Origin: a virus
Virus genome (UHGV): UHGV-0041836
Strand: one strand, 5' to 3'
Length of the DNA: 41,113 nt
Position numbers and translations under genes: made by a program. The notes beneath the pieces were generated by a model. The model worked only from the letters and a program-made list of their open reading frames with translations. It searched no databases and was not told the origin of the DNA. Of this stretch, positions 1-32,664 are shown piece by piece. Every line of letters begins with the position of its first letter. Within the stretch, counting starts at the first letter, position 1.

Positions 1-49
1 TGACGGGTAAAAAGTGGATAAAATAATTTTACCCACCGGATTTTTACCC

Positions 50-1207
50 ATGCTCACCGTTAAGCAGATTGAAGCAGCAAAGCCGAAAGAAAAACCATAC
101 CGCCTACTCGATGGTAATGGCCTGTACCTTTATGTCCCTGTATCAGGGAAAAAGGTATGGCAGCTTCGCTACAAGATTGACGGTAAGGAGAAAATCCTGA
201 CCGTCGGAAAATATCCACTTATGACTTTGCAGGAGGCAAGAGATAAAGCATGGACCGCGAGGAAAGACATCTCGGTTGGCATCGATCCGGTAAAAGCGAA
301 AAAGGCTTCGTCTAACAACAATTCCTTTAGTGCGATTTACAAGGAATGGTACGAGCACAAGAAGCAAGTCTGGTCAGTAGGCTATGCAACTGAACTTGCA
401 AAAATGTTTGATGACGACATTTTACCTATCATCGGCGGCCTTGAAATTCAGGATATTGAGCCGATGCAACTGCTGGAAGTAATCCGCAGATTTGAAGATC
501 GCGGTGCAATGGAGCGAGCCAACAAAGCCCGCAGAAGATGCGGCGAGGTTTTCCGTTACGCTATTGTCACTGGTAGGGCTAAATATAACCCGGCACCTGA
601 CCTTGCTGACGCCATGAAGGGATACCGCAAGAAGAACTTCCCGTTTCTTCCTGCAGACCAGATCCCTGCATTCAACAAAGCACTGGCAACATTTTCAGGA
701 AGTATCGTATCGCTCATTGCGACCAAAGTTTTACGCTACACAGCCCTAAGAACGAAAGAGCTTCGTTCCATGCTATGGAAGAACGTCGATTTTGAAAACA
801 GGATTATCACCATCGACGCCAGTGTGATGAAGGGACGCAAAATTCATGTGGTCCCGATGTCAGACCAGGTGGTTGAACTTCTCACTACGCTAAGCTCCAT
901 CACCAAACCAGTATCAGAGTTTGTTTTTGCCGGGCGCAACGATAAGAAGAAGCCAATCTGCGAGAACGCGGTTCTACTTGTGATCAAACAAATCGGCTAT
1001 GAGGGTCTAGAAAGCGGTCACGGATTCAGGCATGAATTCAGCACGATTATGAACGAGCACGAATGGCCTGCTGACGCTATTGAAGTGCAACTGGCACATG
1101 CCAACGGCGGATCTGTGCGCGGTATTTACAACCATGCTCAGTATCTCGATAAGCGCAGAGAAATGATGCAGTGGTGGGCGGATTGGCTTGATGAGAAGGT
1201 AGAGTGA
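50..1207 (+). CDS. int: P4-type tyrosine integrase (arm DNA-binding N-domain plus catalytic domain)
   Basis: ORF 14..1207; family-typical start MLTVKQIEAAKPK at ATG 50 (the ORF-track start at 14 is GTG). C-terminal HGFRHEF...Y region typical of tyrosine recombinases. Directly downstream of xis on the same strand. Confidence 0.88.
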   Translation: MLTVKQIEAAKPKEKPYRLLDGNGLYLYVPVSGKKVWQLRYKIDGKEKILTVGKYPLMTLQEARDKAWTARKDISVGIDPVKAKKASSNNNSFSAIYKEWYEHKKQVWSVGYATELAKMFDDDILPIIGGLEIQDIEPMQLLEVIRRFEDRGAMERANKARRRCGEVFRYAIVTGRAKYNPAPDLADAMKGYRKKNFPFLPADQIPAFNKALATFSGSIVSLIATKVLRYTALRTKELRSMLWKNVDFENRIITIDASVMKGRKIHVVPMSDQVVELLTTLSSITKPVSEFVFAGRNDKKKPICENAVLLVIKQIGYEGLESGHGFRHEFSTIMNEHEWPADAIEVQLAHANGGSVRGIYNHAQYLDKRREMMQWWADWLDEKVE

Positions 1208-1446: not shown

Positions 1447-2139
1447 TTATTGCGTGAGCTTCGCATGATAGCTGGAGCATCTCTTGTCATCACTAATTAG
1501 CTCCGCTTTATCCGTTCTTGCCCATATTATATTTCTTTTTATTATTTTTGCTGGATTACCGGCTGCTGCACACATAGATGGCACATCTTTAGTTACAATA
1601 CTCCCATACCCAATGACAGATCCGCTTCCAACAGATACCCCTTTCATTATAGAGACATTTCTCCCTACCCATACGTAACTAGATATAATGATATCTTTTG
1701 CCCAATTAATCCTTTTTTTGCTATGAATATCAAATATAGGATGCCCATCTGATGCACGCAAAATAACATCTCTTGCTATCATGCAGTCATGGCCAATTGT
1801 AACATTGCACTTATCAGTGACGACTTCAAAACCTGCACCTATTGTCGTTCTTCTACCGATAATAACTTTTGAACCTTTTGTTGCGACAATATCACCTTTA
1901 ATCTTACTGTTTTTATGTATTCTTACGTAATTATTATCACCCCTAAATATTACGGTAAGCCATCGACACTCAACATCATCTTCTATAATAAGTTTGTTAT
2001 TGTTTCCATTGAACTGAACTTTATTCTCTTTGCTATTTACAAGATCTCCACATACAAAAATATTACCTGATCCATTATCATCAACGGAAAACGAGTCTTG
2101 AGTCTTGAGTCTTGAGTCTTGAGTCTTGAGTCTTGACAT
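1447..2139 (-). CDS. neuO: hexapeptide-repeat (left-handed beta-helix) O-acetyltransferase, NeuO-like polysialic acid O-acetyltransferase, phase-variable
   Basis: 230-aa ORF beginning MS(RLKTQDS)x2 encoded by heptanucleotide repeats; hexapeptide acetyltransferase-like body (VIIGRRTTIGAGFEVV, VWVGRNVSIMKGVSVGSGSVIGYGSIV); AT-rich codon usage; AGGA RBS 8 nt upstream of ATG. Confidence 0.85.
   Translation of the reverse strand: MSRLKTQDSRLKTQDSFSVDDNGSGNIFVCGDLVNSKENKVQFNGNNNKLIIEDDVECRWLTVIFRGDNNYVRIHKNSKIKGDIVATKGSKVIIGRRTTIGAGFEVVTDKCNVTIGHDCMIARDVILRASDGHPIFDIHSKKRINWAKDIIISSYVWVGRNVSIMKGVSVGSGSVIGYGSIVTKDVPSMCAAAGNPAKIIKRNIIWARTDKAELISDDKRCSSYHAKLTQ
2093..2134 (-). repeat. 6 tandem copies of heptanucleotide AAGACTC (coding strand) at codons 2-15 of neuO; contingency (phase-variation) tract
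   Basis: Plus strand shows GAGTCTT x6 immediately 5' of CAT (ATG on minus strand). 6 copies = 42 nt, so the reading frame is maintained. Confidence 0.95.
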
Positions 2140-2292: not shown

Positions 2293-5241
2293 TTAGTGCT
2301 TCCCTTCTATTAAGTCTAACCTAGCTTTTATTCTTTCTATTTCTCTGCGCTGCCATGCCGCCTCGATATAGAATAAGAGATCAGGTCTGACCCCCCATCT
2401 AGATCCTGCTGGCGTTATTTCAACGCGCTCAATGATGTCTTCCATTACCATCACTGGATTATCATCCTCATCAACAATGATGCTCCCGTCATTATCAGTC
2501 AGCGGCATTTCCCTTTGGCCAGTAATGACGTCATCATATACTGCGGGATAATCGTCATAGCAAAGAAACGCATAGCGGCATGTTGTGCTTTCTTCTTCCA
2601 TGAGTCCGTGAGAAATAAGAACATCACGAAGTTGCTGCGCGATTACACCATGATGTATCCTCGCCCCTTCTTCCCCCTTTATAGCGACAGCGTTCAGCCA
2701 TTTATAAGCGATATACCTGACGTCACCCCAGGCATCCAGCAATGCTTCGTCAGGAGAGACCGGCTCTGTCTTTAATGTTCCGTCACTGGTAACCACAGGA
2801 TTGGAGCCAAGATAAACTGTCGAGAACCTGTTTCCCGGACCACCAAGAGCATTTACATTATCAAGATAAGGTTTAACATCTCCGTTCTCAAAAAGATGTT
2901 CGAGTGCGTTATATACCGCGCGACGTGGAGTACTGCTTCCGGAACCATGCAACGTTATCATTGCACCATCTGCTGAAGACGTTGTTTCACCGCCGCTAAC
3001 GATTAATCTCTGAGCGGTAACATCATCAGACGGTACTTTCTTCGCAATAATGGCGTAATTACCCTCAAGTTTGACTTCCGCGCGAACTTGTCCTGATGTA
3101 CCTGCATGGACAGTCAGTGACTGGACGGCAACATCATCTGTGAAATCAACGGGTACAGGAACCGTCCTCACGCCTGACGTCGACATAAAAGTAGGAAGCG
3201 TTCTGTTAGGAGTGGCTCCGTAGACAAAATCCCTTGAAACAAATTCTTCCTGTTTAATTTTCACCCTGAAACAATACAAATCAGCCGGGTGACCATCGTG
3301 AACATAAGGATATTTTCTGTTGTTATCCCCTATGCTCCATGGGTTTAGAAAGTCTTCCCCACCGAAAATGTAGTACAGCCAGTTGTCTTTGATACAAACT
3401 GAACCAACACCAACCGCAGAGTTAACTATTCCGCCCTGATAAATCTGATCAGTAACATTAACCCACTCTACATTATCCAGACTCCACTCATTGACGTTAA
3501 CTCTGGTCATAAATGTTCTTGGATAGTTTCCTGCATAACGGTTATCAGGTTCTCCTCCTTCCCACTCACCAAATGCGCGCTCACTGCCAAAAATAATCAG
3601 CTCATCGCCAACTTTGGCAAAAGGAAGGTTTGAGTGATGAACATTATTTGGGAAGCGAAGAGAATTCCATGATGTACCTAAATCAGAGCTTCTGTGCAAT
3701 GAACTACCGGGTTGAGTACTTAATGTCCCCCTGGTCGTCAGATACAGAATGCCATCATAATATTTTACACATGGCTCAGATGCATTCGCCTCATATTCTG
3801 CAGGTATGCGTCTGCGAACAAAGCTACCAGGAGAACCGAAAGCATCAGAGAAATAGAGTATCCCAAGCTCGCGTGGACCAATATCACCATTATGGTAGCC
3901 AACAGCAAAACTGTTATCGCTAATCGTCGCAAAACTGTGAATCTCAGTAACAGGAGTGCTTCCGTCAACAAAAGAAGGAATAGTTCCAAGACTGGTTTTT
4001 CTCCATGGTGACGAGTGAAATGATGTACCAAAACTCCAGTATCTACCCTCGTTATTCTGATCCACATCCTGGGTATTTTGCGTCGTAACTGTAAAAGTAT
4101 TTTTATCAATAACAGTAGTCACCGTCATATTCCCGGTAACACCTGTAACACCAGAGTTTGAGAAGTTGACAAAATCACCAGCAAATAATCCGTGATCAGT
4201 AATGCGAATATAAGCGACTTGCTGATTTGCTGCTTTCGTTATACCACCATAAGCGCGAAGGCTGCGACTCATTGGGCGATCCCACAACTCTGCAACCTGC
4301 AGTTTATTTCCGCTCACGGTCCGCGTCTCAATTACAGCAAAAAGGCGATTTCTGACAACCCCCATACTCATGCAGTGATAGTTAACTGTGGGATAGTTTT
4401 CATGTAAATCTGTAAGCCATTCCGGCGTTGTCCAGGTCCTCCCGTCATCTCCTGAGCGAACCCATGCAACATGGAGGTTATTTACACCATGGCGGTCTCC
4501 AGCCATAAAAGGCGCATAGATGACATTGTCATATACAAACGTTTTATCCTGCGTCCAGGCGTTGTACCACGGTGTATCTGTAATTTTAAATAACTCTCCC
4601 TGGATAAAATCTTCAGAAGCATAAAAAAGAGGCTGACCCGGTATTCTCTCAAATAAAAAACGAGCATTTTTAAATCGACTGACATCTGGAAGAGTTGATA
4701 CTTTAAAAGTAAGCCCTCGCCCATCTATCTTTTCACCACCTGTTGCAACAGAAAGTAATTCTGATAGAGCTGATGTATCATCATGAACACCATCACCAAT
4801 AGCCCCCCAACCTCTTACATCATAACTGTCTCTCCATCTTGCTATCTGAAGTTTTGGGTATTTATTCGCTCCATCTGGGTCTTCTAATTGCTGCCGTAAC
4901 TGATCAGGATCATACTTCAGCACATTCGGAAAATAGAACTGCTGCACACCATATGCATCATAAACAGCCATAGAATGGCCCTGTACAGTAACGAATTTGG
5001 CAATCTGTCCGTTATATACCGGATATCCAGCAGCGTTAATGATGATTGGTTGCGAAACAGGAACGTGAGAACCGTCTTCATTCTCCACATAAACCTGAAT
5101 CTGGTTTTCAGGATTTACTGGGTCAGTGTCAATTTTACCGATATAAATCTTTCCATTAGCTACGGCTTTAAAAGAACGAGCCATAGTGAAGAGTTGCGAA
5201 GGCATGCTTACCACAACATTGGCATTTATTGAATCTGTCAT
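2293..5241 (-). CDS. tailspike: P22 gp9-like N-terminal head-binding domain, endo-N-acetylneuraminidase (endosialidase)-like central domain, C-terminal intramolecular-chaperone (peptidase S74-like) domain
   Basis: 982 aa; N-terminus [61 protein letters not shown] closely matches the P22 tailspike N-domain as recalled; Asp-box motifs SGDDGRTW and SSDLGTSW; C-terminal region resembles autoproteolytic chaperone domains of K1 endosialidases / T5 L-shaped fibre (from memory). Confidence 0.85.
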
Positions 5242-5375: not shown

Positions 5376-6305
5376 TCAGTAGTTATGTACTGAAGGAGGT
5401 AATTCTTTATTCTTAAGTCTCATCCATGCGGAAAGATTCGTTGGTCCGTCTGGCTCATTGATATCAACATCTCGTGTGTGGTTTATTAAAACGTCTCTTG
5501 CCATTCCGATAACATACGAGAACTCATGGCCATAGTCGTAGCATCTGCCGGAATAGTTCGATTGAATTTGTTTTAGCGCCGGATACAGTTCGCGGAATAA
5601 TGCCTGTGCGCGGTTGGCATAATCCCATAACCATACAAGGCTGTTTGCTTCTTTTGCAGAAAGCTCGTTTGCTTTCTTCTCTTGTTTGCCGATTAACTCG
5701 CCTTCAAGCGGAACGCGAGCTGCAAGTGACAGAGCTTCGGTAAACTGCTCATCGCTGATTTCTTTGTATGAACATCCAAAATGGGATTTCAGTGACGACC
5801 ACATGGTGATCATCGCCTTAGCCTGTTTTTCCTTTGGCAGAGACTGACCGCGACTCATGACGAGTTGTTTAATGGCTTCCTGCTGTTCAGTGGTGATTTT
5901 ACCCGGCAACGCCTTTTTAGCTTTGCGTGGGTTAACTACATGGCCTTTAGTCCAGTATTCGTAGAGCACATCGTCACACTCTTCCTGATACTGGATTACC
6001 TTGTCGCGGATTTCAGGGCGGACTTTGTTAGGGCTAATGGTTTGCAGCCAACCTGCAAGTTTGCGAAGTGCCAAACAAATAATCTCACGGCGCTGTTCAT
6101 CACTAGGAAGCTGCATTGTGATTTTCACAATGGAGGTTTTAAACCGCTGCTTCATTTTCGTAAACTGTGAAGCCCAATCCATACCCATGCCTTCAACGAT
6201 AGGTTTCATTGGGGTATACGGTTCGCCGTTGTGATTGACAACATAAAGCTCTGCGCCGTGGAATGGTACATTGATAGTAGATACTGCTGTTGCTATACTT
6301 TTCAT
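5376..6305 (-). CDS. ant: antirepressor Ant (P22 immI-type)
   Basis: 309 aa, N-terminus MKSIATAVSTINVPFHGAELYVVNHNGEPYTPMKPIVEGMGMDW typical of P22-like antirepressors; sits downstream of arc. Confidence 0.8.
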   Translation of the reverse strand: MKSIATAVSTINVPFHGAELYVVNHNGEPYTPMKPIVEGMGMDWASQFTKMKQRFKTSIVKITMQLPSDEQRREIICLALRKLAGWLQTISPNKVRPEIRDKVIQYQEECDDVLYEYWTKGHVVNPRKAKKALPGKITTEQQEAIKQLVMSRGQSLPKEKQAKAMITMWSSLKSHFGCSYKEISDEQFTEALSLAARVPLEGELIGKQEKKANELSAKEANSLVWLWDYANRAQALFRELYPALKQIQSNYSGRCYDYGHEFSYVIGMARDVLINHTRDVDINEPDGPTNLSAWMRLKNKELPPSVHNY

Positions 6306-6805: not shown

Positions 6806-7054
6806 ATGGCAAAGGGTGTGTCAATTTCTCCAACTACGGTAAGAATCCCTGAATCTTTACGCGAGGCTCTTGCTGTCAGAGCATCAAAAAATGGTCGCTC
6901 TGTTAACTCCGAGATCGTCATGATTTTGCAAGCCGCGATTGATGAAGATAGGTCGCCAAAGTCAGTTGAGTCATTTGCTCAGCAAGAAGCTGACAAATTC
7001 AAAGAGGCGCTGCTTGAGACGCTAAAGACCATGTATGGTAAGGATGAAAAATAA
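6806..7054 (+). CDS. mnt: Mnt-like ribbon-helix-helix repressor
   Basis: 82 aa; RIPESLREALAVRASKNGRSVNSEIVMILQAAI resembles P22 Mnt N-terminal RHH DNA-binding domain. Confidence 0.8.
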   Translation: MAKGVSISPTTVRIPESLREALAVRASKNGRSVNSEIVMILQAAIDEDRSPKSVESFAQQEADKFKEALLETLKTMYGKDEK

Positions 7055-7590
7055 TGCTGCACACAATTCATTTCTTATGCCCCGTTAACACTGCCACTGT
7101 TGGGCAACTTCAGAACCACTGTCTCACCGCATTATCTCAAGGCGCAACTGAATTAAATATCCATATATCAAGTCAGGGAGGGGAAACTGCCGCTGGCTTT
7201 ACTGCGTATAACTTTCTTAAGTCACTCCCTGTTACCGTTAGAACTCACAACATAAGCAATGTTGAATCCATAGCTAATATCGTTTTCCTGGCTGGCTCAG
7301 AACGTTTCGCAAACCCATTATCAAGATTCCTGTTACATCCTCTATTATGGGGCTTTGCCTCCCCAGCCGCCGACCATGCCAGATTGAGAGAGTACGGGAA
7401 ATGCCTCGATAACGATCTTGATCGCTTCGTTGAGACGTTCAATATCGACATCGGAACCCATATTAGGTGGGCATCCCTGATAGCAGACTCGACCATTTTG
7501 GATGCTAACAAGGCTCTTGAGCATGGCATAATTAATTCCATAAAAACTGCAAGGCTGGCATCCAATCAGGCAAACTGGTGGGTTGTTTGA
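7054..7590 (+). CDS. ClpP-fold (S14/S49-like) serine protease homologue, translationally coupled to mnt
   Basis: 178 aa; ELNIHISSQGGETAAGFTAYNFL aligns with ClpP YINSPGGVITAGMSIYDTM; candidate catalytic Ser in NVESIANIVFLAGS (cf. ClpP GQAASMGAFLL) and His in LLHPL (cf. MIHQP). Start ATG overlaps mnt stop (TAATG). By-eye alignment only. Confidence 0.6.
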   Translation: MLHTIHFLCPVNTATVGQLQNHCLTALSQGATELNIHISSQGGETAAGFTAYNFLKSLPVTVRTHNISNVESIANIVFLAGSERFANPLSRFLLHPLLWGFASPAADHARLREYGKCLDNDLDRFVETFNIDIGTHIRWASLIADSTILDANKALEHGIINSIKTARLASNQANWWVV

Positions 7591-7615: not shown

Positions 7616-7644
7616 AAAAAACCCACCTGACGGTGGGTTTTATT
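7616..7644. terminator. bidirectional rho-independent terminator between the convergent ClpP-like and toxin-like genes
   Basis: AAAAAA-CCCACC-TGAC-GGTGGG-TTTTATT: perfect 6-bp stem flanked by A-run and T-run. Confidence 0.6.
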
Positions 7645-8065
7645 AGTGCTTGTATAGCTTGAACTCCCTGTCGAGCCATAAGACATAAAAAGTGGCTCCT
7701 ATCTTATAACCAACCATAGGTGCCTTAGAGCAAAATCTGAACGCAATGAAATCCACATCTTGAGTAACATGCTTAGGAATCGGAGCCTTTATCGCGTTTC
7801 TGGCAATTTTTTCCGTCCCAAGCCCGTGTTTATCAGATTTTCGTATCTCATCCCATGACATCTGACTTAACCTGAACAGCCTATCTGCAAATGCTGCCTT
7901 TTCATGCTTTTGGCAGCAATCTAGGCAATACCCCTTTTGTAGGTATCTAAGAGAAAATACAGGCGGACTTTTGTCTACATCATGAGATTCGTGATGGATA
8001 GAGAGGCCAACAGTAGCAGAGCTCTCTTTATCCCTCTGTTTTATTCTTCCCTTAACTCTAGACAT
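7643..8065 (-). CDS. uncharacterised 140-aa protein, candidate toxin partner of the upstream Panacea-domain protein
   Basis: ORF begins 5 bp downstream of the Panacea-domain ORF on the same strand; Cys-rich (CLDCCQKH); no family recognised by eye; an R-x4-H (RKSDKH) is noted but not diagnostic. Confidence 0.5.
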   Translation of the reverse strand: MSRVKGRIKQRDKESSATVGLSIHHESHDVDKSPPVFSLRYLQKGYCLDCCQKHEKAAFADRLFRLSQMSWDEIRKSDKHGLGTEKIARNAIKAPIPKHVTQDVDFIAFRFCSKAPMVGYKIGATFYVLWLDREFKLYKH

Positions 8066-8070
8066 ACACG

Positions 8071-8520
8071 TCAGTTAATTAACGTTTTGAAAAAACCTTT
8101 CATAGAATCAAGTGTGATTTCTTGGCTAACCGCACCCTCAATGTAAGCATCTTTCCATGGCTGCTCTTCGTGAGTCATATTGCGCAGTTTCCAGGCAGAA
8201 AACTGACCATAAACTTTATACACCTCATCCAGCAATTCAATTTCATCTTCACTGAATTTTTTAGCGTCAAAGTTTTCTGGCGCAGGTAAAGCTCCGTTAC
8301 CACAGTCCCTATATTTACGATACAATTCAGGAACTACTGGCCCATGCATCCAGGCTTCAATTTTCTCATTAAATAGCGGCTTACCCAGAAGAACCAGAGA
8401 AAACCCTTGGGCATAATACGTCAACTTCTGAATTTTTAGGTTAGAGATAATGTCGCCACTTTCTTCATCGCAATGCGCCAAGAAGTAGTCGGCGACATCA
8501 AAACAAGTGAGCATAAACAT
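8071..8520 (-). CDS. Panacea-domain (DUF4065, SocA/GepA-like) protein, candidate antitoxin
   Basis: 149 aa; DVADYFL...ISNLKIQKLTYYAQGFSLVLLGKPLFNEKIEAWMHGPVVPELYRKY matches the DUF4065/Panacea signature (LKLQKLLYYAQGW...GPV.P..Y) as recalled. Confidence 0.7.
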   Translation of the reverse strand: MFMLTCFDVADYFLAHCDEESGDIISNLKIQKLTYYAQGFSLVLLGKPLFNEKIEAWMHGPVVPELYRKYRDCGNGALPAPENFDAKKFSEDEIELLDEVYKVYGQFSAWKLRNMTHEEQPWKDAYIEGAVSQEITLDSMKGFFKTLIN

Positions 8521-8888: not shown

Positions 8889-9278
8889 GTGAGGCAATTT
8901 CTTGCTGCTATGTTCTTATTCATATCTTTTGGGGCTACAGCAGAGTGCTGGGTAGTTGGAGATATGCGCGGAATAAGCTATTCAGAACGAAATAATTTCC
9001 AACCAGAAGAAGATGGTTTTAGTGGAACATTCATCATTAAGACAAGCGGTGAAGATGCCAGCATCACATATTCTGGGGCAGATGCGGGCGGCATGGCTTA
9101 CAAAGCATTGTCTAAAAACTCCATCATAGGAATCGGCGCAAATGGCGAAACTCAACGCGTTATCGACTCATGGGTAATACATCCTACTGGAACAGTTTTA
9201 ATGTCAAAAACCATTTCCGGTTATGGAAATATGGATTCAACCAAAGCTTTTGTTGGAAAAGTAAAAAGAAAATGTTAA
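8889..9278 (+). CDS. small secreted protein (Sec signal peptide, AxA cleavage site), moron of unknown function
   Basis: 129 aa; GTG start with AAGGAGG RBS 6 nt upstream; N-terminal hydrophobic segment FLAAMFLFISFGATA followed by EC; Cys near both ends of the mature protein; opposite strand to the flanking late genes, preceded by a 368-bp AT-rich region. Confidence 0.6.
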   Translation: MRQFLAAMFLFISFGATAECWVVGDMRGISYSERNNFQPEEDGFSGTFIIKTSGEDASITYSGADAGGMAYKALSKNSIIGIGANGETQRVIDSWVIHPTGTVLMSKTISGYGNMDSTKAFVGKVKRKC

Positions 9279-13245: not shown

Positions 13246-13701
13246 CTATCTCCCGTGATTCAGGAAGTCGATTAGTTCTTCGCGTGTGGCGCTGTAAAAC
13301 GTCACGTCATCCACGCCTTTGAAGTATTTCTTGATGGTTCCTACACGCTTAAGGCCAACCATTGCGCAGTACATCTGCCCGTGGCGGAATTTGCGTGCAG
13401 CGAACGATGTGACGCACTGAACGGTGGTGTTAGTCAGAATGTATCGCCAGAACGCCAGCCCGATTTCCTTGCTGAAGCCGCGAATCTCTGGCAGGTACAT
13501 GGCGTGGCAATCAAAGGTTAGCGGCTGAATCTCCTGATAGTAAACAATTCCGCCGAACTGCCCGTGCACGTTCACCTCAAAGTAACGGCATTCAGGTTTG
13601 TAGTCGTATCCATCACCGTTGTTGCTCCCGGCGATAATGTCATGGTGATTTCCTACGGCTTCTATCAGGTCGATGTTTCGCGTTGGTTTGAATGTAATCA
13701 T
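13246..13701 (-). CDS. head assembly protein, P22 gp14-like
   Basis: 151 aa, between tail-needle and gp7-like genes. Confidence 0.7.
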   Translation of the reverse strand: MITFKPTRNIDLIEAVGNHHDIIAGSNNGDGYDYKPECRYFEVNVHGQFGGIVYYQEIQPLTFDCHAMYLPEIRGFSKEIGLAFWRYILTNTTVQCVTSFAARKFRHGQMYCAMVGLKRVGTIKKYFKGVDDVTFYSATREELIDFLNHGR

Positions 13702-14402
13702 CAGTCAATCAGCCCATGTAATCTAAGTGCCGTTTCAATCGCCAGAATACGCTGCCGCGCCTGCTGCAAACCTGTAGCGAGAGCCGCGACTTCGGATTGT
13801 GTGTACGTAGTGCCGACCGTGTATGACTGGTTAGCGTTGAATGAGCCAAGAAGAGGTGTACCTGTGGCTGCAGTCCATCCGGTATTTCTTGCTCCAACAA
13901 CCTGAATTCCATCAACTGAATATGATGTTTTTACATCCAGCGGTGACGCAAGAGACTGCGATTCGGTTACGGTTTTCGATACGTAATCACTCTTAATGCC
14001 AGAGACATCGTTTTCTACGTCATCCAGTCTTTGGTCAACAGTGACCAGATGCGCCTGAATATCGATAACCTCATCCAGCAAGTAATCAACATCGCTACGC
14101 AGTACGACTATCTTCCCTTCGGCAGTTGTTAACCTGACCTCAAGTAGATTTATCGCTTTTGTGTTTGCGGTGATTCTTGCGTCGTGATCAGCCAGTTCGA
14201 CATCCTGTTCATCGTTTTTTACCTGGGCATCGTAAGCGCCCTGACCAGCCTGATTTGCCTTCCCGGCAATTGCGCCGACATCAGCCCCCTGATTAATGAC
14301 ATACAGCAGGTAAGACTGGCTGAATATATTGCGTGGAAGGATTGATGTATCGAGTCGTGTAGCCTGAATTGTTACCGGCTCATTGAGATTCGAATCAGCC
14401 AT
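13701..14402 (-). CDS. tail needle (cell-envelope penetrating plug), P22 gp26-like
   Basis: 233 aa; N-terminus [73 protein letters not shown] closely matches P22 gp26 as recalled; coiled-coil heptads. Confidence 0.9.
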
Positions 14403-15820
14403 TACTCAATCCTTATCTGGCAACCAGACAGAGTGACAGGTGACTTCGTGATAACGCGCAATTTGAAGCCGACATTTTTCCTGATGCGCCCTACTCGCTT
14501 CCACAAAACACGTTTGTCGTAAACGAACGGTTCATTCTGCTCAATCATCTGCTCACGCCCGTAATTGATGCCGTCAGTGGTTGCAGAGAGAAAAAGGCGG
14601 TCAGCATACTGCGCAACGCCAGTTGACGACTCAACCTCAAGGTCGAAAACTCTGGCGTTATCCGCTTTGAACAACGGAGTAAACAGCAGGTGTTCCTGTT
14701 GCCTGTCGTACTGGCTGCTGATATCGAACTGCAATTTCCCTGTCATCGATTCAAGCTTATCGCCGCACGTAATTTGGTTGCCTTCGTAAATGAAGTCGAT
14801 AGCGCGGTACACATCGTCATACAGGCCTGTTTTCAGTACACACCATTGCGGACCATTGGCGCTTGAAGATGCGTCGTACACGAGGACGTGGCGCGGCAGG
14901 TGAATAATCAGCAACTCATGAGCATCAAACCGCAACGATTCCATCACGCCATCAGCCAGTTCATCAGCAGTGTAGGAGCGGAGGATTTTCTCAATGCTCG
15001 CGCTGGCTATTGGTGATACCTGACCGGAGCCGATGATGTATACAGAAGGCGCGCCTGTTGCCGGATTGCTGATGAACGCATACGAATCAGCAAACGGCGT
15101 TTTGCAGTAAGTCCCGGCAATACCTTTCTGCACCATCAGCGATGGCTGTGCGACATACAAAGCGGCACCAACAGTGGTTGCACCAGTCATGGAGAAATAT
15201 TCAATCGTTGATGAACCAAAGCAGACAATGAAGTCTCGCCATGTTCCGATGCCGATAATGCCGTCAGGCTGCGATTCTGCGCGATATTGTGCGCTGTATC
15301 GGTCAGGGTGCGATTCGTCTTCAGGGTCAGTAATAAACCATGAATCCGTGCCGTCTTTTGACCACGCATAACGCCCACGTAAGCGTGTAATGTCGCGGAC
15401 TGAACCTAACTCATACTGCGTAAATCCGCTGTCTGCAGGCCAGTTTGAGACGGTTTTAACCGTGCCATCATAGCGATACTCAACCAGTTGACCATTAACG
15501 CCTACAGCCTGAGATGTTCGACCATGCGCCATTGATACACGACCACTTCCGGCAACATCACCGACTTCACTTTCTCCTTTGTACAGCTTGCCGCCACACA
15601 CGCGATAAACAGCATTCTGCGCCATGTTGTACTCAACTCCGCGCGATACACCGTTTACATCAGAGCGTTTGGCAATGCCCGGGAATGAGCGAAGATATCC
15701 GCTGCTGTTAAGGATTTCTTTGGGTGTAGCCAACATATTCACTGGCAGATAGTCGATATAGTCGGCGTTTCTAAAGTCTTTGCCGACACCTTTCATAAGC
15801 GGAAGTTGCTGAATCGGCAT
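14402..15820 (-). CDS. tail hub protein, P22 gp10-like
   Basis: 472 aa; conserved position between gp4-like and gp26-like. Confidence 0.85.
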
Positions 15821-15829
15821 TTATTCACC

Positions 15830-16291
15830 TCACGTACTCGGATCATCTTTCTCGATGTAAAACCGATTCCACGTAAACGCGCTTTTGTTACCACTACCGC
15901 GAGGCATGTCATTTCGCCGCTCAAGTGGTGGTATTTTGGTTAAAGCGATACAGATTGTCTGATATGCACTGTCAGCAGCGGTAAGGAGAGCGTCTGACGG
16001 CTGAATGACGTTATCCATGCACACTTGCACAGCGAGTTTCAAAGCGACGCCATCATTTGCCCATGCAGGGATACCTGAATCATCGTCAGGTAACGGCATG
16101 ATGCCGTTTTCTGTATCAGCAAACTGATATCCAAGCTCGATACCTTTAGCCTGCCATGCTGCCATCATGTCTTCGAGGTCATTAATGGCATCTTCAATTG
16201 CCTGAGGGTCAGCATCTGTCAACGTGGCATTGGAATACAGCCCGGCTTTTCGTAAAGCCTTTAGAACGAGATCACCCTTCGTTTTCGCCAT
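15830..16291 (-). CDS. head-tail adaptor, P22 gp4-like
   Basis: 153 aa; KTKGDLVLKALRKAGLYSNATLTDADPQAIEDAINDLEDMMAAW resembles P22 gp4 N-terminus as recalled. Confidence 0.85.
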   Translation of the reverse strand: MAKTKGDLVLKALRKAGLYSNATLTDADPQAIEDAINDLEDMMAAWQAKGIELGYQFADTENGIMPLPDDDSGIPAWANDGVALKLAVQVCMDNVIQPSDALLTAADSAYQTICIALTKIPPLERRNDMPRGSGNKSAFTWNRFYIEKDDPST

Positions 16292-24690: not shown

Positions 24691-25163
24691 ACCTCAATCT
24701 CTCTGACCGTTCCGCCAGCCTCTTTGAATTTTGCAATCAGGCTGTCAGCCTTATGCTCGAACTGACCATAACCAGCCCCCGGCAGTGAAGCCCAGATGTT
24801 GCTGCAACGGTCGATAGCCTGACGGATATCACCGCGATCAATCATCGGCAAAGCGCCACGTTCCTTAATCTGCTGCAGCGCAACAGCGTCCTGGCTTTTG
24901 GGAGAGAAGTCTTTCAGGCCAAGCTGCTTACGATAGGCATCCCACCAACGGGAAAGAAGCTGGTAACGTCCGGCTGCTGTTGATTTGAGTTTGGGGTTTA
25001 GCGTGACAAGTTTGCGAGGGTGATCGGAGTAATCAGTGAATAGCTCTCCGCCTACAATGACGTCATAACCGTGATTTCTGGTTTTCTGCCGTCCGTTATC
25101 TGTTCCTTCTGACCACGCCAGCATATCGAGGAACGCCTTACGTTGATTATTGATTTCCACCAT
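24687..25163 (-). CDS. R: endolysin (lambda R lytic transglycosylase)
   Basis: 158 aa; [51 protein letters not shown] matches lambda R as recalled. Confidence 0.95.
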
Positions 25164-25470
25164 CTTCTACTCCGGCTTTTTTAGCAGCGAAGCGTTTGAT
25201 AAGCGAACCAATCGAGTCAGTACCGATGTAGCCGATGAACACGCTCGTTATATAAGCGAGATTGCTACTTAGTCCGGCGAAGTCGAGAAGGTCACGAATG
25301 AACCAGGCGATAATGGCGCACATCGTTGCGTCGATTACTGTTTTTGTAAACGCACCGCCATTATATCTGCCGCGAAGGTACGCCATTGCAAACGCAAGGA
25401 TTGCCCCGATGCCTTGTTCCTTTGCCGCGAGAATGGCGGCTAACAGGTCATGTTTTTCTGGCATCTTCAT
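25147..25470 (-). CDS. S: holin (lambda S, class I)
   Basis: 107 aa; [43 protein letters not shown] matches lambda S with dual-start motif M-K-M. Confidence 0.92.
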
Positions 25471-25712
25471 GTCTTACCCCCAATAAGGGGATTTGCTCTA
25501 TTTAATTAGGAATAAGGTCTATTACTGATAGAACAAATCCAGGCTACTGTGTTTAGTAATCAGATTTGTTCGTGACCGATATGCACGGGCAAAACGGCAG
25601 GAGGTTGTTAGCGCAGCCTCTTGCCACCCGCTTTCACGAAGGTCATGTGTAGAAGGCCGCAGCGTAACTATCACTGATGAGTTCAGGATAGCCAGTGGCT
25701 ACGGCTCAGTTA

Positions 25713-25788
25713 TGGTGCTGGTTAACGGACTTGAACCGCTACCCATTCGCTTACAAGGCGACCGCTCTACCATTGGAGCTAAACCAGC
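25713..25788 (-). tRNA. tRNA-Thr (anticodon TGT) candidate
   Basis: Hand-folded cloverleaf on minus strand: GCTGGTT-TA-GCTC-CAATGGTA-GAGC-G-GTCGC-CTTGTAA-GCGAA-TGGGT-AGCGG-TTCAAGT-CCGTT-AACCAGC-A-CCA (76 nt; 7/7 acceptor pairs; encoded CCA). Confidence 0.7.
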
Positions 25789-25793
25789 ATATT

Positions 25794-25868
25794 TGGCGGG
25801 ACAGCGTGGACTCGAACCACGATAAGAAGGTTAACAGCCTTCCGTAATGACCTTTATACGACTGACCC
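25794..25868 (-). tRNA. tRNA-Asn-like (anticodon GTT) candidate, possibly degenerate
   Basis: Minus strand GGGTCAG...GAAGG-CTGTTAA-CCTTC-TTAT-CGTGG-TTCGAGT-CCACG-CTGTCCC-G-CCA; good anticodon and T arms, one acceptor mismatch (T-T) and a weak D-stem. Confidence 0.5.
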
Positions 25869-25870
25869 AA

Positions 25871-25930
25871 ATAAAAAATCCCGAAACCGTTGTGCAGGCT
25901 CTAACTATTACCTGCGAACTGTTTCGGGAT
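25871..25930 (-). terminator. tR'-type terminator of the short late leader (6S-like) transcript
   Basis: Minus strand AATCCCGAAAC...GTTTCGGGATT 10-bp stem followed by TTTTTTAT; matches the lambda tR' region as recalled. Confidence 0.7.
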
Positions 25931-26059
25931 TGCATTTTGCAGACCTCTCAGCCTGCGATGGTTGGAGTTCCAGACGATACGTCGAAGTGACCAACTAGGC
26001 GGAATCGGTAGTAAGCGCCGCCTCTTTTCATCTCACTACCACAACGAGCGAATTAACCC

Positions 26060-26105
26060 ATCGTTGGGTCAAATTTACCCAACTTTATTCAAAAAGTCAA
26101 TATTA
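26060..26105 (-). promoter_or_regulatory. late promoter pR' with Q-utilisation (qut) region
   Basis: Minus strand TTGACT (26100..26095), 17-nt spacer, TAAATT (26077..26072); immediately downstream of Q; matches lambda pR' as recalled. Confidence 0.7.
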
Positions 26106-26142
26106 TGCCGTTAATATGTTGCCATCCGTGGCAATCATGCTG

Positions 26143-26766
26143 TTAACGTGTGACCGCATTCAAAATGTTGTCTGCGATTGACTCTTCTTTGTGGCATTGC
26201 ACCACCAGAGCGTCATACAGCGGCTTAACAGTGCGTGACCAGGTGGGTTGAGTAAGGTTTGGGATTAGCATCGTTACAGCGCGATATGCGGCGCTTGCTG
26301 GCATTCTTGAATAGCCGACACCTTTGCATCTTCCGCACTCTTTCTCAACAACTCTCCCCCACTGCTCTGTTTTGGCTATATCAACCGCACGGCCTGTACC
26401 GTGGCAATCTCTGCATCTTGCGCCCGGCGTCGCGGCACTACGGCAATAATCCGCATAAGCGAATGTTGCGAGCACTTGCAGTACCTTTGCCTTAGTATTT
26501 CCTTCAAGCTTTGCAACGCCACGGTATTTCCCCGATACCTTGTGTGCAAATTGCATCAGATAGTTGATAGCCTTTTGTTTGTCGTTCTGGCTGAGTTCGT
26601 GCTTACCACAGAATGCAGCCATTCCGAATCCGGCTTGTGATTGCGCCATCCCCATAGCAGCCATCACATCAGTACCGGAAAGAGAGTCAGAAGCCGTAGC
26701 CCGTGGTGAGTCGCTCATCATCGGGCTTTTTGGCGAATGAAATTTAGCTGCGCTTTCGAGTCTCAT
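26143..26766 (-). CDS. Q: late-gene antiterminator Q (lambda type)
   Basis: 207 aa; MRLES.AKFHSPKSPMMSDSPRATASDSLSGTDVMAAMGMAQSQAGFGMAAFCGKHELSQNDKQKAINYLMQFAHKVSGKYRG matches lambda Q as recalled; Cys-rich zinc motif CRDCHGTGR...CGRCKG. Confidence 0.95.
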   Translation of the reverse strand: MRLESAAKFHSPKSPMMSDSPRATASDSLSGTDVMAAMGMAQSQAGFGMAAFCGKHELSQNDKQKAINYLMQFAHKVSGKYRGVAKLEGNTKAKVLQVLATFAYADYCRSAATPGARCRDCHGTGRAVDIAKTEQWGRVVEKECGRCKGVGYSRMPASAAYRAVTMLIPNLTQPTWSRTVKPLYDALVVQCHKEESIADNILNAVTR

Positions 26767-26951
26767 GGCCTTCCCCTTTTGCCCTGTTTGACCATCAGGA
26801 CGCCGTTAACTATTACGTGACGCTCGCCTTTGCTGTCTCGGTTGTACTTGAGCACTGTTCCTCTTGCGCAGGAAAGCATCCTTGCCACTTCGGTCTGATT
26901 GCCTCGTGTCTGGATAAGAAGCTCTGGTATCGTTTGAATTGTGGCGTTCAT
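26763..26951 (-). CDS. ninH: NinH-like protein
   Basis: 62 aa; IPELLIQTRGNQTEVARMLSCARGTVLKY resembles lambda NinH; immediately upstream of Q. Confidence 0.75.
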   Translation of the reverse strand: MNATIQTIPELLIQTRGNQTEVARMLSCARGTVLKYNRDSKGERHVIVNGVLMVKQGKRGRP

Positions 26952-27310
26952 GCGTTCTCCAGTTCGGTGATTTTTATTCCAAGCCTTCCGCCTGGTACTT
27001 TCACGCCACGAATTACGCGAATGTCATCGAATTGCTCGTCGTCTTCCGCAAATCCGGCGTGGATAAGGGAGTCGAGTAAACCTTTCAGGATGTTGTCGAG
27101 GTCGCGACGGCGGGAGTCCGGAACGTCTACGATGACTTTGATGCGGAGTCGTGATTTGGTGAAAATGTCTAACTTAAGTTGGCGGATGATTTGCTGAACG
27201 TCTTTTCGGTATTTCTGGCCTTTATCGCTGATGTAGTATTGGCTTCCCCGTCTTCGCCAGTAGGTATTCACCGACGGCGGGTATGGAAGCACAAACTGAT
27301 ATTCGTTCAT
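26948..27310 (-). CDS. rusA: RusA-family Holliday-junction resolvase
   Basis: 120 aa; YWRRRG...DVPDSRRRDLDNILKGLLDSLIHAGFAEDDEQ matches the RusA catalytic core (D-x-DN) as recalled. Confidence 0.88.
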   Translation of the reverse strand: MNEYQFVLPYPPSVNTYWRRRGSQYYISDKGQKYRKDVQQIIRQLKLDIFTKSRLRIKVIVDVPDSRRRDLDNILKGLLDSLIHAGFAEDDEQFDDIRVIRGVKVPGGRLGIKITELENA

Positions 27311-27597
27311 GGCTTAATCTTCCCCTCCCTCAGCAGTATCGCCTGCGTCCTGATCACGCCTTCGAGGTGGTAAAGTCTGGCGTCTTTGTTGTCGAGAATC
27401 CGGGTGCGTCGGTCGATCTCCGCGTGGCAGTCACTACAAGCCCATGCGCCGATCAGGTCGTCAGGCTTCATTCCAGTTCCGCAAATTCCAGCCATCCGGT
27501 AATGTGCCAGAACTGTAGTTTCAGGATTGCCATTGCATATGCCGTAAATACGTACCTGGCATTCTCTGCCGCGTGCTTCTTTGCGTAGGTTAGCCAT
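27307..27597 (-). CDS. nin-region protein, Cys/His-rich (DUF1364-like)
   Basis: 96 aa with CxxxxxxxxC...CSDCH metal-binding-like motifs; conserved nin-region position. Confidence 0.55.
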   Translation of the reverse strand: MANLRKEARGRECQVRIYGICNGNPETTVLAHYRMAGICGTGMKPDDLIGAWACSDCHAEIDRRTRILDNKDARLYHLEGVIRTQAILLREGKIKP

Positions 27598-27866
27598 TAT
27601 GGTTCGCTCCAGTAATTCTCAATTGCAGCAGCCATTCTCTGCATCCACTCAGCCAGCTTTAACGCGGCTTCTCTTTCAGAACCACATTTAGGGAAATCCT
27701 TCATTTCCATGCTGGCCTTATATGTTCTGAATGCCAGGTCTCCGGTAATAACCAACTCCTGATCAAGCACCGAGCGTTTATTCCGGTGTTGAACGTAATA
27801 GACAGATTCAGTCCGCATTTCTTCTCTGTCTTTTTTGAAGGAAATAAGCTCAGAGAAATCACTCAT
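27597..27866 (-). CDS. hypothetical nin-region protein
   Basis: 89-aa ORF, start overlapping NinF stop (ATGA coupling). Confidence 0.5.
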   Translation of the reverse strand: MSDFSELISFKKDREEMRTESVYYVQHRNKRSVLDQELVITGDLAFRTYKASMEMKDFPKCGSEREAALKLAEWMQRMAAAIENYWSEP

Positions 27867-28029
27867 CGTCTTCTTCCTCGTACATTGAGCTATTCGGATC
27901 GCTCATCAGTTCTGCGCAGCAGTGCTCACACATGTGAACTTCCAGCACATGCAGCTTCTGACCGCAGTTAGCGCACGTTAAAGCCCGCTCGACGCTTTCT
28001 TGTTCGTAACTTCGATTTGGGTCAATCAC
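27859..28029 (-). CDS. ninF: NinF-like protein (GTG start)
   Basis: 56 codons [56 protein letters not shown], very similar to lambda NinF as recalled; below the ORF-track size cutoff. Confidence 0.6.
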
Positions 28030-28208
28030 CTTGTTTTCCTCGCACGTTCTCTAAGCCACCGGATATCCCACAGGTGAGCTGTGTAATTGAAGGTTTTTAC
28101 GTCAGATTCTTTTGGGATTGGCTTACGTTTATTTCTGGAGCGTTTCGTTGGAAGGTATTTGCAGTTTTCGCAGATGATGTCGGTGATGCTTCGTCGCTGT
28201 CGTCTCAT
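28026..28208 (-). CDS. ninE: NinE-like protein
   Basis: [60 protein letters not shown] matches lambda NinE as recalled; start taken at internal ATG 28208. Confidence 0.75.
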
Positions 28209-28615
28209 TCGTACCTCCTGTCGGTAAATCTGACACCCTGACCAATAGCCCATGCTGTCGTGTACTCAATCAGACTTGCCATACGCTTCACACTCATCTG
28301 CGCGCTACTTTCGCGAATGTTGACGTATTCGCCTTCAAGCCCGGGCAAAACATCAGCTTCCTGTTTTGTTGCCACTGCATGACCGCTGATCAACAAAACC
28401 TTCCATTGTTCTGGTTTTAGCCATTTATCGCACCATTGAACCTGACGAGCGATATCCGCCAGCATCGCGTGAAATTTTGCGTTCTGGTCAAGGTTGCGCT
28501 TGTAGTCAGTAATGCGGATGGTGACTGGCTTGTCTTTATCGAGTGGTGTTGCGAGGATGGCGTTGATTGCGGCTTGCTGTTGTTGCTTAGTTCGGAGGAA
28601 TATTGTTTGCTTCAT
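28205..28615 (-). CDS. ninB: NinB (Orf-family recombination mediator)
   Basis: 136 aa; pattern ...[19 protein letters not shown]...W resembles lambda NinB (DQNRKLWACLGDVSRQVEW). Confidence 0.82.
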
Positions 28616-28943
28616 CGAAATTCTTCTCTTTAATTCCAGCGGCTCTGATAGCTTTCATTACTGCAATTACCGTTTTGTCACGCCCATCCTCATAACCCAT
28701 CGCATAAGCACCTTCTTCACCATCTTTCCAAAAGTCGTCATTCGATTCTGGCCAGTCGATATCCAGTTCAATAGCTGCTCGCGATGCCTGCCATAAAGTC
28801 CACCACTCATTTAAGGAGTGACGAATATCCATGCTTGAAAATGCGAAGTACCTATCACCATTTCTTGCCTCGGTTATCATCTCGAATGGTAATCTCAATT
28901 TTTTGGCAACGTATTCCTCAAACTTCTTTCTTGATTCGTCCAT
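28587..28943 (-). CDS. hypothetical early protein
   Basis: 118-aa acidic ORF between replication genes and ninB. Confidence 0.5.
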   Translation of the reverse strand: MDESRKKFEEYVAKKLRLPFEMITEARNGDRYFAFSSMDIRHSLNEWWTLWQASRAAIELDIDWPESNDDFWKDGEEGAYAMGYEDGRDKTVIAVMKAIRAAGIKEKNFDEANNIPPN

Positions 28944-28960
28944 CGGTACTTACCCTCAGT

Positions 28961-29167
28961 TCAACTCACAAAACGCCACGCCACTTTTGCAACGACAACA
29001 GGCATAACACCGATAATCACCCACAGGAAAATGCTACCGAAAAGCACACCCACCAGGTCTTTACCTTCGCCTACCAACCGGACAAAACTTCCGACAACCA
29101 CAATGAACGTCGACACCATCCACATAGCACCGAGAATCCTCAATGCAGAGAAAATTAACTCAGCCAC
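28961..29167 (-). CDS. small putative membrane protein (two hydrophobic segments), GTG start
   Basis: 68-aa ORF with two predicted transmembrane helices; start codon GTG; a further 26-codon hydrophobic ORF (29163..29243) lies upstream, overlapping the primase-helicase stop. Confidence 0.3.
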   Translation of the reverse strand: MAELIFSALRILGAMWMVSTFIVVVGSFVRLVGEGKDLVGVLFGSIFLWVIIGVMPVVVAKVAWRFVS

Positions 29168-29243
29168 GATTTACTCTCCCCCAAATAAAAAGGCCTGCGA
29201 TTACCAGCAGGCCTGTTACAAGCTCACTGATGTAGATGGTCAT

Positions 29244-31124
29244 TTAATACTCCGTCACGTTTTCCTGTCGCCACGCCTCGTCATATTCCGATTTCGGCAT
29301 ATTGGCGATGTAGCTATATGGCGATCCTGATTCAAGTTGCAGGAACTGGTGCGATTGCTCGTCAAGGAACAACGGGACACCACCTTCCCAACCTTCGCCG
29401 TTACGTTGTTTTTCAAGCATCAAAACAGATGCCGGAGATGCCAGTAGCTGTTCGTCCTTCTCTGACATCTTTTCACCACTCTGAACTCTCTGTAACGCTC
29501 TCTCGCGAGCCTTGTTACGCCAGATGATGAAAAGGTTGTCTGTCAGGTCTGTTATCGCTCCAGAGCCTTTTACGTCCATTTTCCCGGTTGGTTTTTCTTC
29601 GCTGTCTCCTTTTCGCGAGTGAGTAACGAGAATGACGTGGGAGTTTGTTTTGTTTTTGAAGTCGCAAATCGAGTCAACAAACGCCTTCTGCCCGTTATAG
29701 TCATCGTCGCCTATGCCACATTTCATCAGGCTGTCGATGATGAATAACTGGATCCCGTATCGGCGGCGAGCGTAGTCGAATATTTCGATCAGCCTGTCGG
29801 CTTTCGCCGTTCCGGTCAGGCCAAACACCCAAAGTCTTTCGTCATAAAATTTAAATGCAGAGTCAATTTCCAGCACTGGCGGCATCTTGCAGCACGTCGC
29901 CTGACGGGTAAGTCGCTTAAGGAGAATGCCTGGCTTCAGCTCAAGTGACGCGATGCACGTCTTCACACCCTGACGCATTGCCTCAAGTGCCATATGCCCG
30001 ACAACCTCCGTTTTTCCGTGACCGTTCACACCATTGACCAGCGTCAACTCTGCCTCACGGAACTGGAATTTATCTGCCAGAGATTCCCACGGTGGATTAA
30101 ACAGATACTGCTGCTTGCCGTAGAAAGCGTTGATAGTGTCCTGGTAAAACTCTCGCGCGCTGTAGAGTTCTTCAGGATCGAAGTAGGATGCCGTGCCGAT
30201 GTACTGCCAGATTTCATCCTCGGTAACACCGTTCATCAGGCATTCGTTGATGTCTTTGTACGGCAGAGTAACAAGACGGCAACGATGTTCACCGAGTCGG
30301 CTTGCGATTTCCCTTGCGGCTTCACGACCAACATCATCAACGTCCATCGAGATGAATATTTCCTCAAACCTGTCGAGGTTGTGATACTCAAACTCAATCC
30401 ACTGCTGTTTAGCGCCTTTCCCGCCACCAAACGGCACGGATAACGCCGAGATGCCATATTGCGCATAGCTCATACAATCAATTTCGCCTTCGCAAAGTAC
30501 AACCGCCCTCACGCCAGCGTCCAGAGCCTGCCATCCAAACAGACAAGGTTCGCAATCACCTTCTGCCATAATGACTTTCTTCCCGTCCGGTCGCTCAGTG
30601 CTGATTCGCTTGACCTGCAACAACTCACCATCGCGTTTGTACGGAAGCACCAGTGCATCAAGTTCTCGTTCTCCATTCCACACCTTGCCGCTGACAACCT
30701 CGTAGCGCTTTACGACTTCTGGCGATATGCCACGCGATTGCAGGTACTCAAGATGGGATTCTGTTCTGGTAACGTAGCGGGCGATTTTCTTGCGGTCAGG
30801 TCTGGAGAATTTCTTCTCACGTTTGGCATCGAAATGGTGATCGTCATCCTTGATTCCGAGAAAGGCTTTCGCTTCCTGCATAGCCTGATGCAGGTTAATT
30901 CCACGACATGCCATCCACAAATCAAGCATGTCACCGCCGTCTCCCTCAGCGAAATCAGCCCATTTTTTCTTGCCGCTAAGGTTGACCTTAAGGCTGTTTC
31001 CCTTGTCACCGTTGACGTTACCGGCAACCCACTCATGCCCCTCTTTCTTGCCGTTTGGCAACAGGTGCGGAGCCACCCTGTCAACCTGCGCCCAAAGCAG
31101 GTCACTGAGTTCACTTGGCGTCAT
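29244..31124 (-). CDS. bifunctional DNA primase / replicative helicase (Toprim-primase N-part, DnaB/RepA-like P-loop helicase C-part)
   Basis: 626 aa; Toprim-like acidic motifs (LCEGEIDCMSY, DVDDVGREAA) and Walker A-like NGVNGHGKTEV; occupies the position of lambda P / P22 gene 12. Confidence 0.8.
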   Translation of the reverse strand: MTPSELSDLLWAQVDRVAPHLLPNGKKEGHEWVAGNVNGDKGNSLKVNLSGKKKWADFAEGDGGDMLDLWMACRGINLHQAMQEAKAFLGIKDDDHHFDAKREKKFSRPDRKKIARYVTRTESHLEYLQSRGISPEVVKRYEVVSGKVWNGERELDALVLPYKRDGELLQVKRISTERPDGKKVIMAEGDCEPCLFGWQALDAGVRAVVLCEGEIDCMSYAQYGISALSVPFGGGKGAKQQWIEFEYHNLDRFEEIFISMDVDDVGREAAREIASRLGEHRCRLVTLPYKDINECLMNGVTEDEIWQYIGTASYFDPEELYSAREFYQDTINAFYGKQQYLFNPPWESLADKFQFREAELTLVNGVNGHGKTEVVGHMALEAMRQGVKTCIASLELKPGILLKRLTRQATCCKMPPVLEIDSAFKFYDERLWVFGLTGTAKADRLIEIFDYARRRYGIQLFIIDSLMKCGIGDDDYNGQKAFVDSICDFKNKTNSHVILVTHSRKGDSEEKPTGKMDVKGSGAITDLTDNLFIIWRNKARERALQRVQSGEKMSEKDEQLLASPASVLMLEKQRNGEGWEGGVPLFLDEQSHQFLQLESGSPYSYIANMPKSEYDEAWRQENVTEY

Positions 31125-31231
31125 GATTCCCTCAGATTGAGATTTTTAAACCAGAAATCGACAAACGAAATACTTAACCAGCCGTGGTTATAACCAGCGA
31201 CCAGTAGCGATTTGATTTTTGATTTCATGGT

Positions 31232-32092: not shown

Positions 32093-32231
32093 GACCTTTC
32101 TCCTTCTGCATCAGCTTCACTTTTTCCAACTCAGCCCGGAATCGACCAGGCTGCTTGAAGCTGGACAGGAAGCGATCACGTAGTATGTGTTTGTGAATTT
32201 TGTCCTGGTAAGGACTGAGTTGTTTTGTCAT
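32088..32231 (-). CDS. small ORF (48 aa) between cII and O
   Basis: [48 protein letters not shown] with AGGAG RBS; overlaps O start by 8 nt. Confidence 0.35.
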
Positions 32232-32266
32232 AATGACTCCTGTGGATTGATCCAGTCTTTCTACAA

Positions 32267-32548: not shown

Positions 32549-32595
32549 AGATAATTTCCTTAATGATTAGATAGAGTTGGCTTCGCAAAGAAACG

Positions 32596-32633: not shown

Positions 32634-32664
32634 CAGGGCGGTGATGTGTAAGAGCGTTAATAAC

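Follow-up and report, generated by a model that had tools for sequence, protein, structure and literature searches.

The 41,113-nucleotide stretch of viral DNA analyzed here (UHGV virus genome UHGV-0041836, hereafter the window) carries at positions 2293..5241, on the minus strand, a complete tailspike gene. The sequence evidence makes it almost certain that this is an allele of siaK1, a tailspike gene belonging to a P22-like temperate podovirus of the CUS-3 type, and that the phage resides as a prophage beside tRNA-Arg (argW) in a K1-encapsulated Escherichia coli. Its product joins a P22-type head-binding domain to an endosialidase and to a C-terminal intramolecular chaperone/autopeptidase domain. 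This exact chimera, a P22 adaptor with a K1F-like catalytic part, has already been published as the CUS-3 tailspike, and the gene is already known in detail with respect to its sequence, the structures of homologous parts, its activity and its evolutionary meaning.

Identity and distribution of the tailspike gene

The gene was delimited from the list of open reading frames (ORFs) and from its match to CUS-3. It comprises 982 codons plus a stop, opens with an ATG preceded by a GGAG approximately 9 nt upstream, and is uninterrupted. Over its full length, it shares 98.8% DNA identity with siaK1 of CUS-3 from E. coli RS218 (CP000711.1), a GenBank record in which the product is named "endosialidase tailspike protein" (protein id ABQ88383.1). 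The same annotation assigns endo-alpha-sialidase activity to the product (GO:0016996), with the experimental evidence code IDA and reference to Stummeyer et al. 2006 (PMID 16689790). At the protein level, the window allele differs from CUS-3 SiaK1 by 12 amino acids, namely an extra Ser4, which is a single-residue indel, and 11 substitutions, including R268K at a variable position of the first Asp-box. All 12 differences lie away from the catalytic and cleavage residues.

At least 12 complete E. coli chromosomes contain the full-length gene at 100% identity, in every case annotated as "phage tailspike protein", and the best 12 records listed derive from human or clinical isolates. More broadly, 181 of the 5,426 complete E. 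coli genomes compared contain a match that spans 80% or more of the gene. Partial matches occur in approximately 1,000 further complete genomes, where the sharing is probably limited to a part of the gene held in common with other P22-like prophage tailspikes.

Prophage context and present-day use

The window is an almost complete CUS-3-type prophage. It starts 142 bp inside attL, with attL itself lying outside, and near its other end it contains the 16-bp CUS-3 attR core, TTGCAGGTTCGATTCC, at 40828..40843. Past this core comes a short excisionase-like ORF, beyond the limits of the CUS-3 record. A circularly permuted free phage genome was considered as an alternative description of the window and was rejected on account of the attR core at 40828 and the excisionase-like ORF beyond it. 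In E. coli strain PA45B, which carries a tailspike gene 100% identical to that of the window and an exact match to the first 300 bp of the window, the integrase adjoins tRNA-Arg and yfdC.

The order of neighboring genes is that of CUS-3: integrase, neuO, tailspike, ant and Arc/Mnt-type regulators. The tyrosine integrase, of the argW type, is encoded at 14..1207 on the plus strand. Directly downstream of the tailspike gene lies neuO (1447..2139, minus strand), which encodes a hexapeptide-repeat polysialic-acid O-acetyltransferase and was recognized by its Pfam Hexapep match and by a position corresponding to that of CUS-3 neuO. The Ant antirepressor gene occupies 5376..6305 on the minus strand. 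The N-terminus of NeuO reads MSRLKTQDSRLKTQDS, and two nucleotides after the ATG of its gene begins a poly-psi variable-number tandem repeat of six AAGACTC copies (2093..2134, minus strand), in agreement with the published description of neuO (PMC3046976). Full-length NeuO is produced only when the repeat number is a multiple of three (PMC3046976, PMC13001214). Six copies satisfy this rule, so neuO is in frame and in phase ON in the window, whereas neuO in CUS-3 of RS218 contains 19 copies. As a phage cargo gene, neuO also shows the host to be K1-encapsulated. Taken as a whole, the window marks its source as a K1 E. coli harboring a CUS-3-type prophage, probably an extraintestinal pathogenic (ExPEC) strain.

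Genes for a P22-type tail are located at 13701..16291 on the minus strand. Among them, a gp4-like gene (15830..16291, minus strand) matches Pfam P22_Tail-4 with E = 7e-41, and a gp10-like gene (14402..15820, minus strand) matches Phage_stabilise with E = 3.5e-299. In P22, gp4 and gp10 form the hub that receives the head-binding domain of the tailspike. A third ORF of 233 residues (13701..14402, minus strand) gave no match in Pfam and was assigned to the tail-needle position by its location and its collinearity with CUS-3. P22-type gp7 and gp20 ejection proteins, coat, portal and large terminase are likewise encoded in the window, as identified by Pfam. The window prophage has the same tailspike gene as CUS-3 of RS218, with the same domain order in the encoded protein, and the same neighbors int, neuO and ant. 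The two prophages diverge in the stretch that separates the arc/mnt regulators from the ejection genes, and over much of the early region.

This context bears on whether the tailspike is still in use. The intact gene could be a functionally idle relic, with the prophage retained in K1 lineages for neuO and giving rise to no infectious virions. The element is widespread and appears clonally inherited, given the 100% identical copies in human isolates and the 181 positive genomes; neuO is found at very high prevalence in ST95 (PMC13001214); and the early region is mosaic and unlike that of CUS-3 of RS218. However, the 982-residue ORF is uninterrupted and has kept all catalytic and processing residues that were checked. 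The tail, ejection, coat, portal and large-terminase genes tested are intact and match P22-type or terminase Pfam families, and the attR core is also intact. We consider an idle tailspike unlikely on this evidence. The question of idleness concerns present-day use of the tailspike and leaves the identity of the protein untouched.

Domain architecture and the chimera junction

A Pfam search of the tailspike protein returned six domains, all scoring above the curated cut-offs. Among them are End_N_terminal and Peptidase_S74, which an earlier note made from the sequence alone had named among the domains to look for. Solved structures at high identity cover residues 1–119 and 146–980.

The N-terminal adaptor is a P22-type head-binding, or particle-attachment, domain spanning residues 4–114 (4900..5232, minus strand; PF09008 Head_binding, E = 1e-64). 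Residues 1–119 align with the Sf6 tailspike gp14, the product of gene 14 (structure 7SG7, E = 2.6e-65), and with the head-binding domain of P22 gp9 (2VKY, 1LKT and 8TVR, E between about 1e-46 and 1e-51). The earlier note had matched the first ~110 residues to the P22 particle-binding domain, an assignment that both the Pfam family and the Sf6 and P22 structures bear out. Similarity to Sf6 gp14 is especially close, the two proteins being nearly identical over residues 1–115.

Between the adaptor and the enzyme lies a linker of residues 115–146 (4804..4899, minus strand), which falls outside both Head_binding and End_N_terminal. Because the resemblance to P22 and Sf6 breaks off at approximately residues 116–119 and homology to the endosialidase endoNF of coliphage K1F begins at residue 146, the chimera junction can be placed within this linker of about 30 residues. 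The same arrangement has been described in a review, according to which CUS-3 has the N-terminal domain also found in HK620, Sf6 and P22, together with a catalytic domain shared with K1F; the review uses CUS-3 as its example of host-range change through the exchange of tailspike modules (PMC5380687).

The window shares with the P22 (gp9), Sf6 (gp14) and HK620 group both the N-terminal head-binding domain and the P22-type tail hub genes. The receptor-binding parts of those three tailspikes, in contrast, are right-handed beta-helix endorhamnosidases or endoglycosidases that act on O-antigen and include no endosialidase part. In the window protein, Peptidase_S74 matches beyond the stretch that can be aligned with the P22, Sf6 and HK620 tailspikes.

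Endosialidase part and predicted substrate specificity

The enzyme part begins with the endosialidase N-terminal extension at residues 147–213 (4603..4803, minus strand; PF12218 End_N_terminal, E = 8.9e-37). It is followed by a GH58 six-bladed beta-propeller at residues 214–663 (3253..4602, minus strand; PF12217 End_beta_propel, E = 1.6e-233, 774.7 bits against a cut-off of 24), within which a beta-barrel is nested at residues 325–407 (4021..4269, minus strand; PF12195 End_beta_barrel, E = 2.9e-46). The endosialidase stalk occupies residues 664–818 (2788..3252, minus strand; PF12219 End_tail_spike, E = 7.6e-78). Residues 146–818 align end to end with the endoNF chains 1V0E and 3GVL/3JU4 (E = 0, approximately 1050 bits), and the phi92 endosialidase structure 4HIZ aligns with the same residues.

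Two sialidase Asp-boxes had been pointed out in the central part of the protein, and both are present within the propeller match. Asp-box 1, SGDDGRTW, at residues 263–270 (4432..4455, minus strand), aligns with SGDDGQTW of endoNF, and Asp-box 2, SSDLGTSW, at residues 518–525 (3667..3690, minus strand), aligns with SRDIGQTW. In composition-preserving shuffles of the protein, the pattern S.D.G..W occurred on average 0.008 times per shuffle, and no shuffle out of 20,000 contained it twice or more.

In K1F, deep mutational scanning of the tailspike identified H350, R549, E581, R596 and R647 as catalytic and sialic-acid-binding residues (PMC12632334). By alignment mapping, these correspond to H251, R457, E489, R504 and R555 of the window protein, and all five are conserved. 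The second-shell residues Q330, D331, H527, S528, K585 and N699 are conserved as well. Two features set the window protein apart from endoNF. The first is a seven-residue insertion in the propeller, FVDGSTP, at residues 424–430. The second is Met761 at the position of endoNF Q853; CUS-3 also has Met here, residue 761 not being among the 12 differences. Together with R837 and S848, Q853 is a putative part of a secondary polysialic acid (polySia)-binding site in the endoNF stalk, attributed to Stummeyer et al. 2005. Support for this stalk site (R837, S848 and Q853) was sought and none was found in the literature searched.

Comparison with other endosialidases places the window protein within a family whose members reach the virion by different routes. 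The endoNF protein (gp17) of the lytic coliphage K1F is built from the same propeller, beta-barrel, stalk and S74 chaperone domain. The two enzyme parts share 65.5% protein identity, with no change at the active-site residues or in the Ser/Lys dyad. Where the window protein has a P22 head-binding domain, K1F gp17 has a T7-type tail-fibre N-terminal adaptor (PMC5380687). The endosialidases of K1E and K1-5, of phi92 and of K1G/K1H/63D-type siphoviruses contain a homologous GH58 part that is 58–62% identical to that of the window. Unlike the window protein, those of K1E and K1-5 are attached to the virion through a separate adaptor protein, and phi92 and the K1G/K1H/63D-type phages have myovirus or siphovirus tails.

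According to the earlier note, the virion targets the polysialic acid (K1) capsule. This proposal gains support from the 98.8% identity to siaK1, whose activity carries the IDA code, from the retained catalytic residues, from the adjoining neuO and from the identical copies in human extraintestinal E. coli isolates; on these sequence grounds, K1 polysialic acid is the predicted target.

A shift in substrate preference relative to the endosialidases of lytic K1 phages, either toward tolerance of or preference for O-acetylated polySia, the product of NeuO, or toward cleavage of alternating alpha-2,8/2,9 polymers, was weighed against this prediction. The catalytic part is just 65.5% identical to that of K1F gp17, and both the insertion at residues 424–430 and the Met in place of Q853 could be read as signs of such a shift. 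Furthermore, O-acetylation lowers killing by a lytic K1 phage (PMC13001214), and a phage that carries neuO might have adapted its own spike accordingly. The known active-site residues, however, are all identical to those of endoNF, and the CUS-3 enzyme is on record as an endo-alpha-sialidase. In addition, a 2026 study reads NeuO as a means of superinfection exclusion against similar K1 phages (PMC13001214), which argues against a spike that tolerates O-acetylation. A shifted preference is therefore very unlikely. The more specific proposition that CUS-type endosialidases, with their insertion at residues 424–430 and Met at the Q853 position, evolved to act on the O-acetylated polySia made by their own NeuO has an equally slim chance of being correct; if it were true, NeuO would exclude rival K1 phages and spare CUS-3 itself.

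It is scarcely credible that the protein is instead a generic tailspike, sialidase-like or with another glycosidase activity, that lacks polySia specificity and whose Asp-boxes are a mere fold signature. Asp-boxes alone do occur in many non-sialidase beta-propellers, and BNR_2 gave a weak match of 17.3 bits, below the cut-off of 31.4. Endosialidase-specific families and structures, by contrast, match all 673 residues of the enzyme part (774.7 bits for PF12217; E = 0 for 1V0E), and a generic BNR/sialidase fold was rejected on these grounds.

C-terminal S74 domain and predicted processing

The C-terminal part, which the earlier note had likened to the intramolecular chaperone/peptidase domain of K1 endosialidases, proved to be just such a domain. 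The intramolecular chaperone/autopeptidase (S74) domain extends over residues 819–982 (2296..2787, minus strand) and was defined by PF13884 and by structure 3GW6. The Peptidase_S74 match itself covers residues 819–879 (E = 1.6e-10, 41.5 bits against a cut-off of 22). Structure 3GW6, the C-terminal intramolecular chaperone domain of endoNF, aligns with residues 699–980, and the last 185 residues, used alone as the query, matched it with E = 2e-61.

The position of the predicted cleavage site follows from these alignments. Thr818 is the counterpart of the residue at which the endoNF chains 1V0E and 3GVL terminate, and the segment SDGTLK, which starts at Ser819, aligns with ANGERK of the 3GW6 chain, in which the Ala is position 911. 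We take the endoNF dyad to be numbered S911/K916 and the Ala in 3GW6 to represent an S911A mutation. Because SDGTLK aligns with ANGERK immediately after Thr818, Ser819 and Lys824 are assigned as the Ser/Lys autocleavage dyad, with cleavage predicted between Thr818 and Ser819. A Ser/Lys dyad is the autocleavage mechanism of phage endosialidases (PMC3742443).

Proposed mode of action

From direct homology, we infer trimerization, autocleavage, tail attachment and endosialidase activity for the window allele. The protein would fold as a homotrimer with the assistance of the C-terminal S74 chaperone domain, which would then release itself by cleavage between Thr818 and Ser819 through the Ser819/Lys824 dyad. 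The mature spike, consisting of residues 1–818, would dock on the gp4/gp10 tail hub through its P22-type head-binding domain. At the host surface, the GH58 propeller, with H251, R457, E489, R504 and R555, would bind the capsule and cleave polysialic acid at its internal alpha-2,8 linkages, and this cutting may open a tunnel by which the virion crosses the K1 capsule and reaches the outer membrane.

Significance

The finding correctly marks the window as a prophage of the CUS-3 type in a K1 E. coli, and biologically it brings nothing new. The CUS-3 tailspike is a standard literature example of how host range evolves when P22-like and T7-like phages swap modules. Endosialidases are useful reagents in polysialic acid research and candidate therapeutics against K1 strains. 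As a further natural siaK1 allele, with its 12 differences, the window gene is of minor catalogue value.

Mosaic structure and integration site of the prophage

The early, immunity and replication region (25001..40800) is mosaic. The lambdoid phages mEp043 and Sf101, as well as phiv205-1, cover 59-72% of the query at an identity of 97-99%. All three lie nearer to this region than CUS-3 of RS218, which falls outside the six best matching records. The first 25 kb of the window are matched best by phiv205-1 (86% covered), with CUS-3 in second place (75%). On these matches, the prophage is a recombinant variant of CUS-3.

Directly past the CUS-3 attR core, within the stretch 40828..41113, lies a 66-aa open reading frame (ORF; 40863..41063) beginning MQHELQPDSLVDLKFIMADTGF, whose match to HTH_17 in Pfam is weak and below threshold. 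Its product presumably resembles the excisionase TorI encoded by KplE1/CPS-53, the prophage that occupies argW in K-12. Further downstream in the same stretch, GGGTAAAAT-like repeats are found. Together, the TorI-like ORF and these repeats past the attR core suggest that CUS-3 is arranged in tandem with the remnant of an older argW prophage, and a recombination module may be common to the two.

Phase state of neuO

Directly downstream of the tailspike gene is neuO (1447..2139, minus strand), an already known contingency locus encoding the phase-variable polysialic-acid O-acetyltransferase. Its AAGACTC repeat (2093..2134, minus strand) is present in six copies, which encode two RLKTQDS heptads. 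With this copy number, neuO of the window is in frame and phase ON, whereas the 19 copies in CUS-3 of RS218 correspond to the OFF state.

Accessory genes

A SocA/Panacea-domain protein of 149 aa (8071..8520, minus strand; Pfam E = 2.2e-24) is followed after 5 nt by a 140-aa ORF on the same strand (7643..8065), for which a Pfam search returned no match. The gene layout suggests that this pair (7643..8520) constitutes a moron-borne antitoxin-toxin system of the PanA type. E. coli strain PA45B carries both genes, as does the window, whereas CUS-3 of RS218 has other hypothetical genes at the equivalent position.

Between the Panacea gene and an ejection-protein gene, a 129-aa ORF (8889..9278, plus strand) without a Pfam match has a signal peptide-like N-terminus, MRQFLAAMFLFISFGATAEC, and may represent a moron encoding a secreted protein or lipoprotein. 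The immI-like region, with ant on one side and the ejection genes on the other, contains two plus-strand genes (6806..7590) that overlap by one base. One encodes an 82-aa Arc/RHH-family regulator, the other a 178-aa homologue of ClpP-like serine proteases, which matches CLP_protease in Pfam with E = 4.8e-12. This is an unusual location for a Clp protease-like gene. Phage-borne tRNA-Thr(TGT) and tRNA-Asn(GTT) genes (25713..25868, minus strand) are flanked by lysis genes and the late-regulator region.
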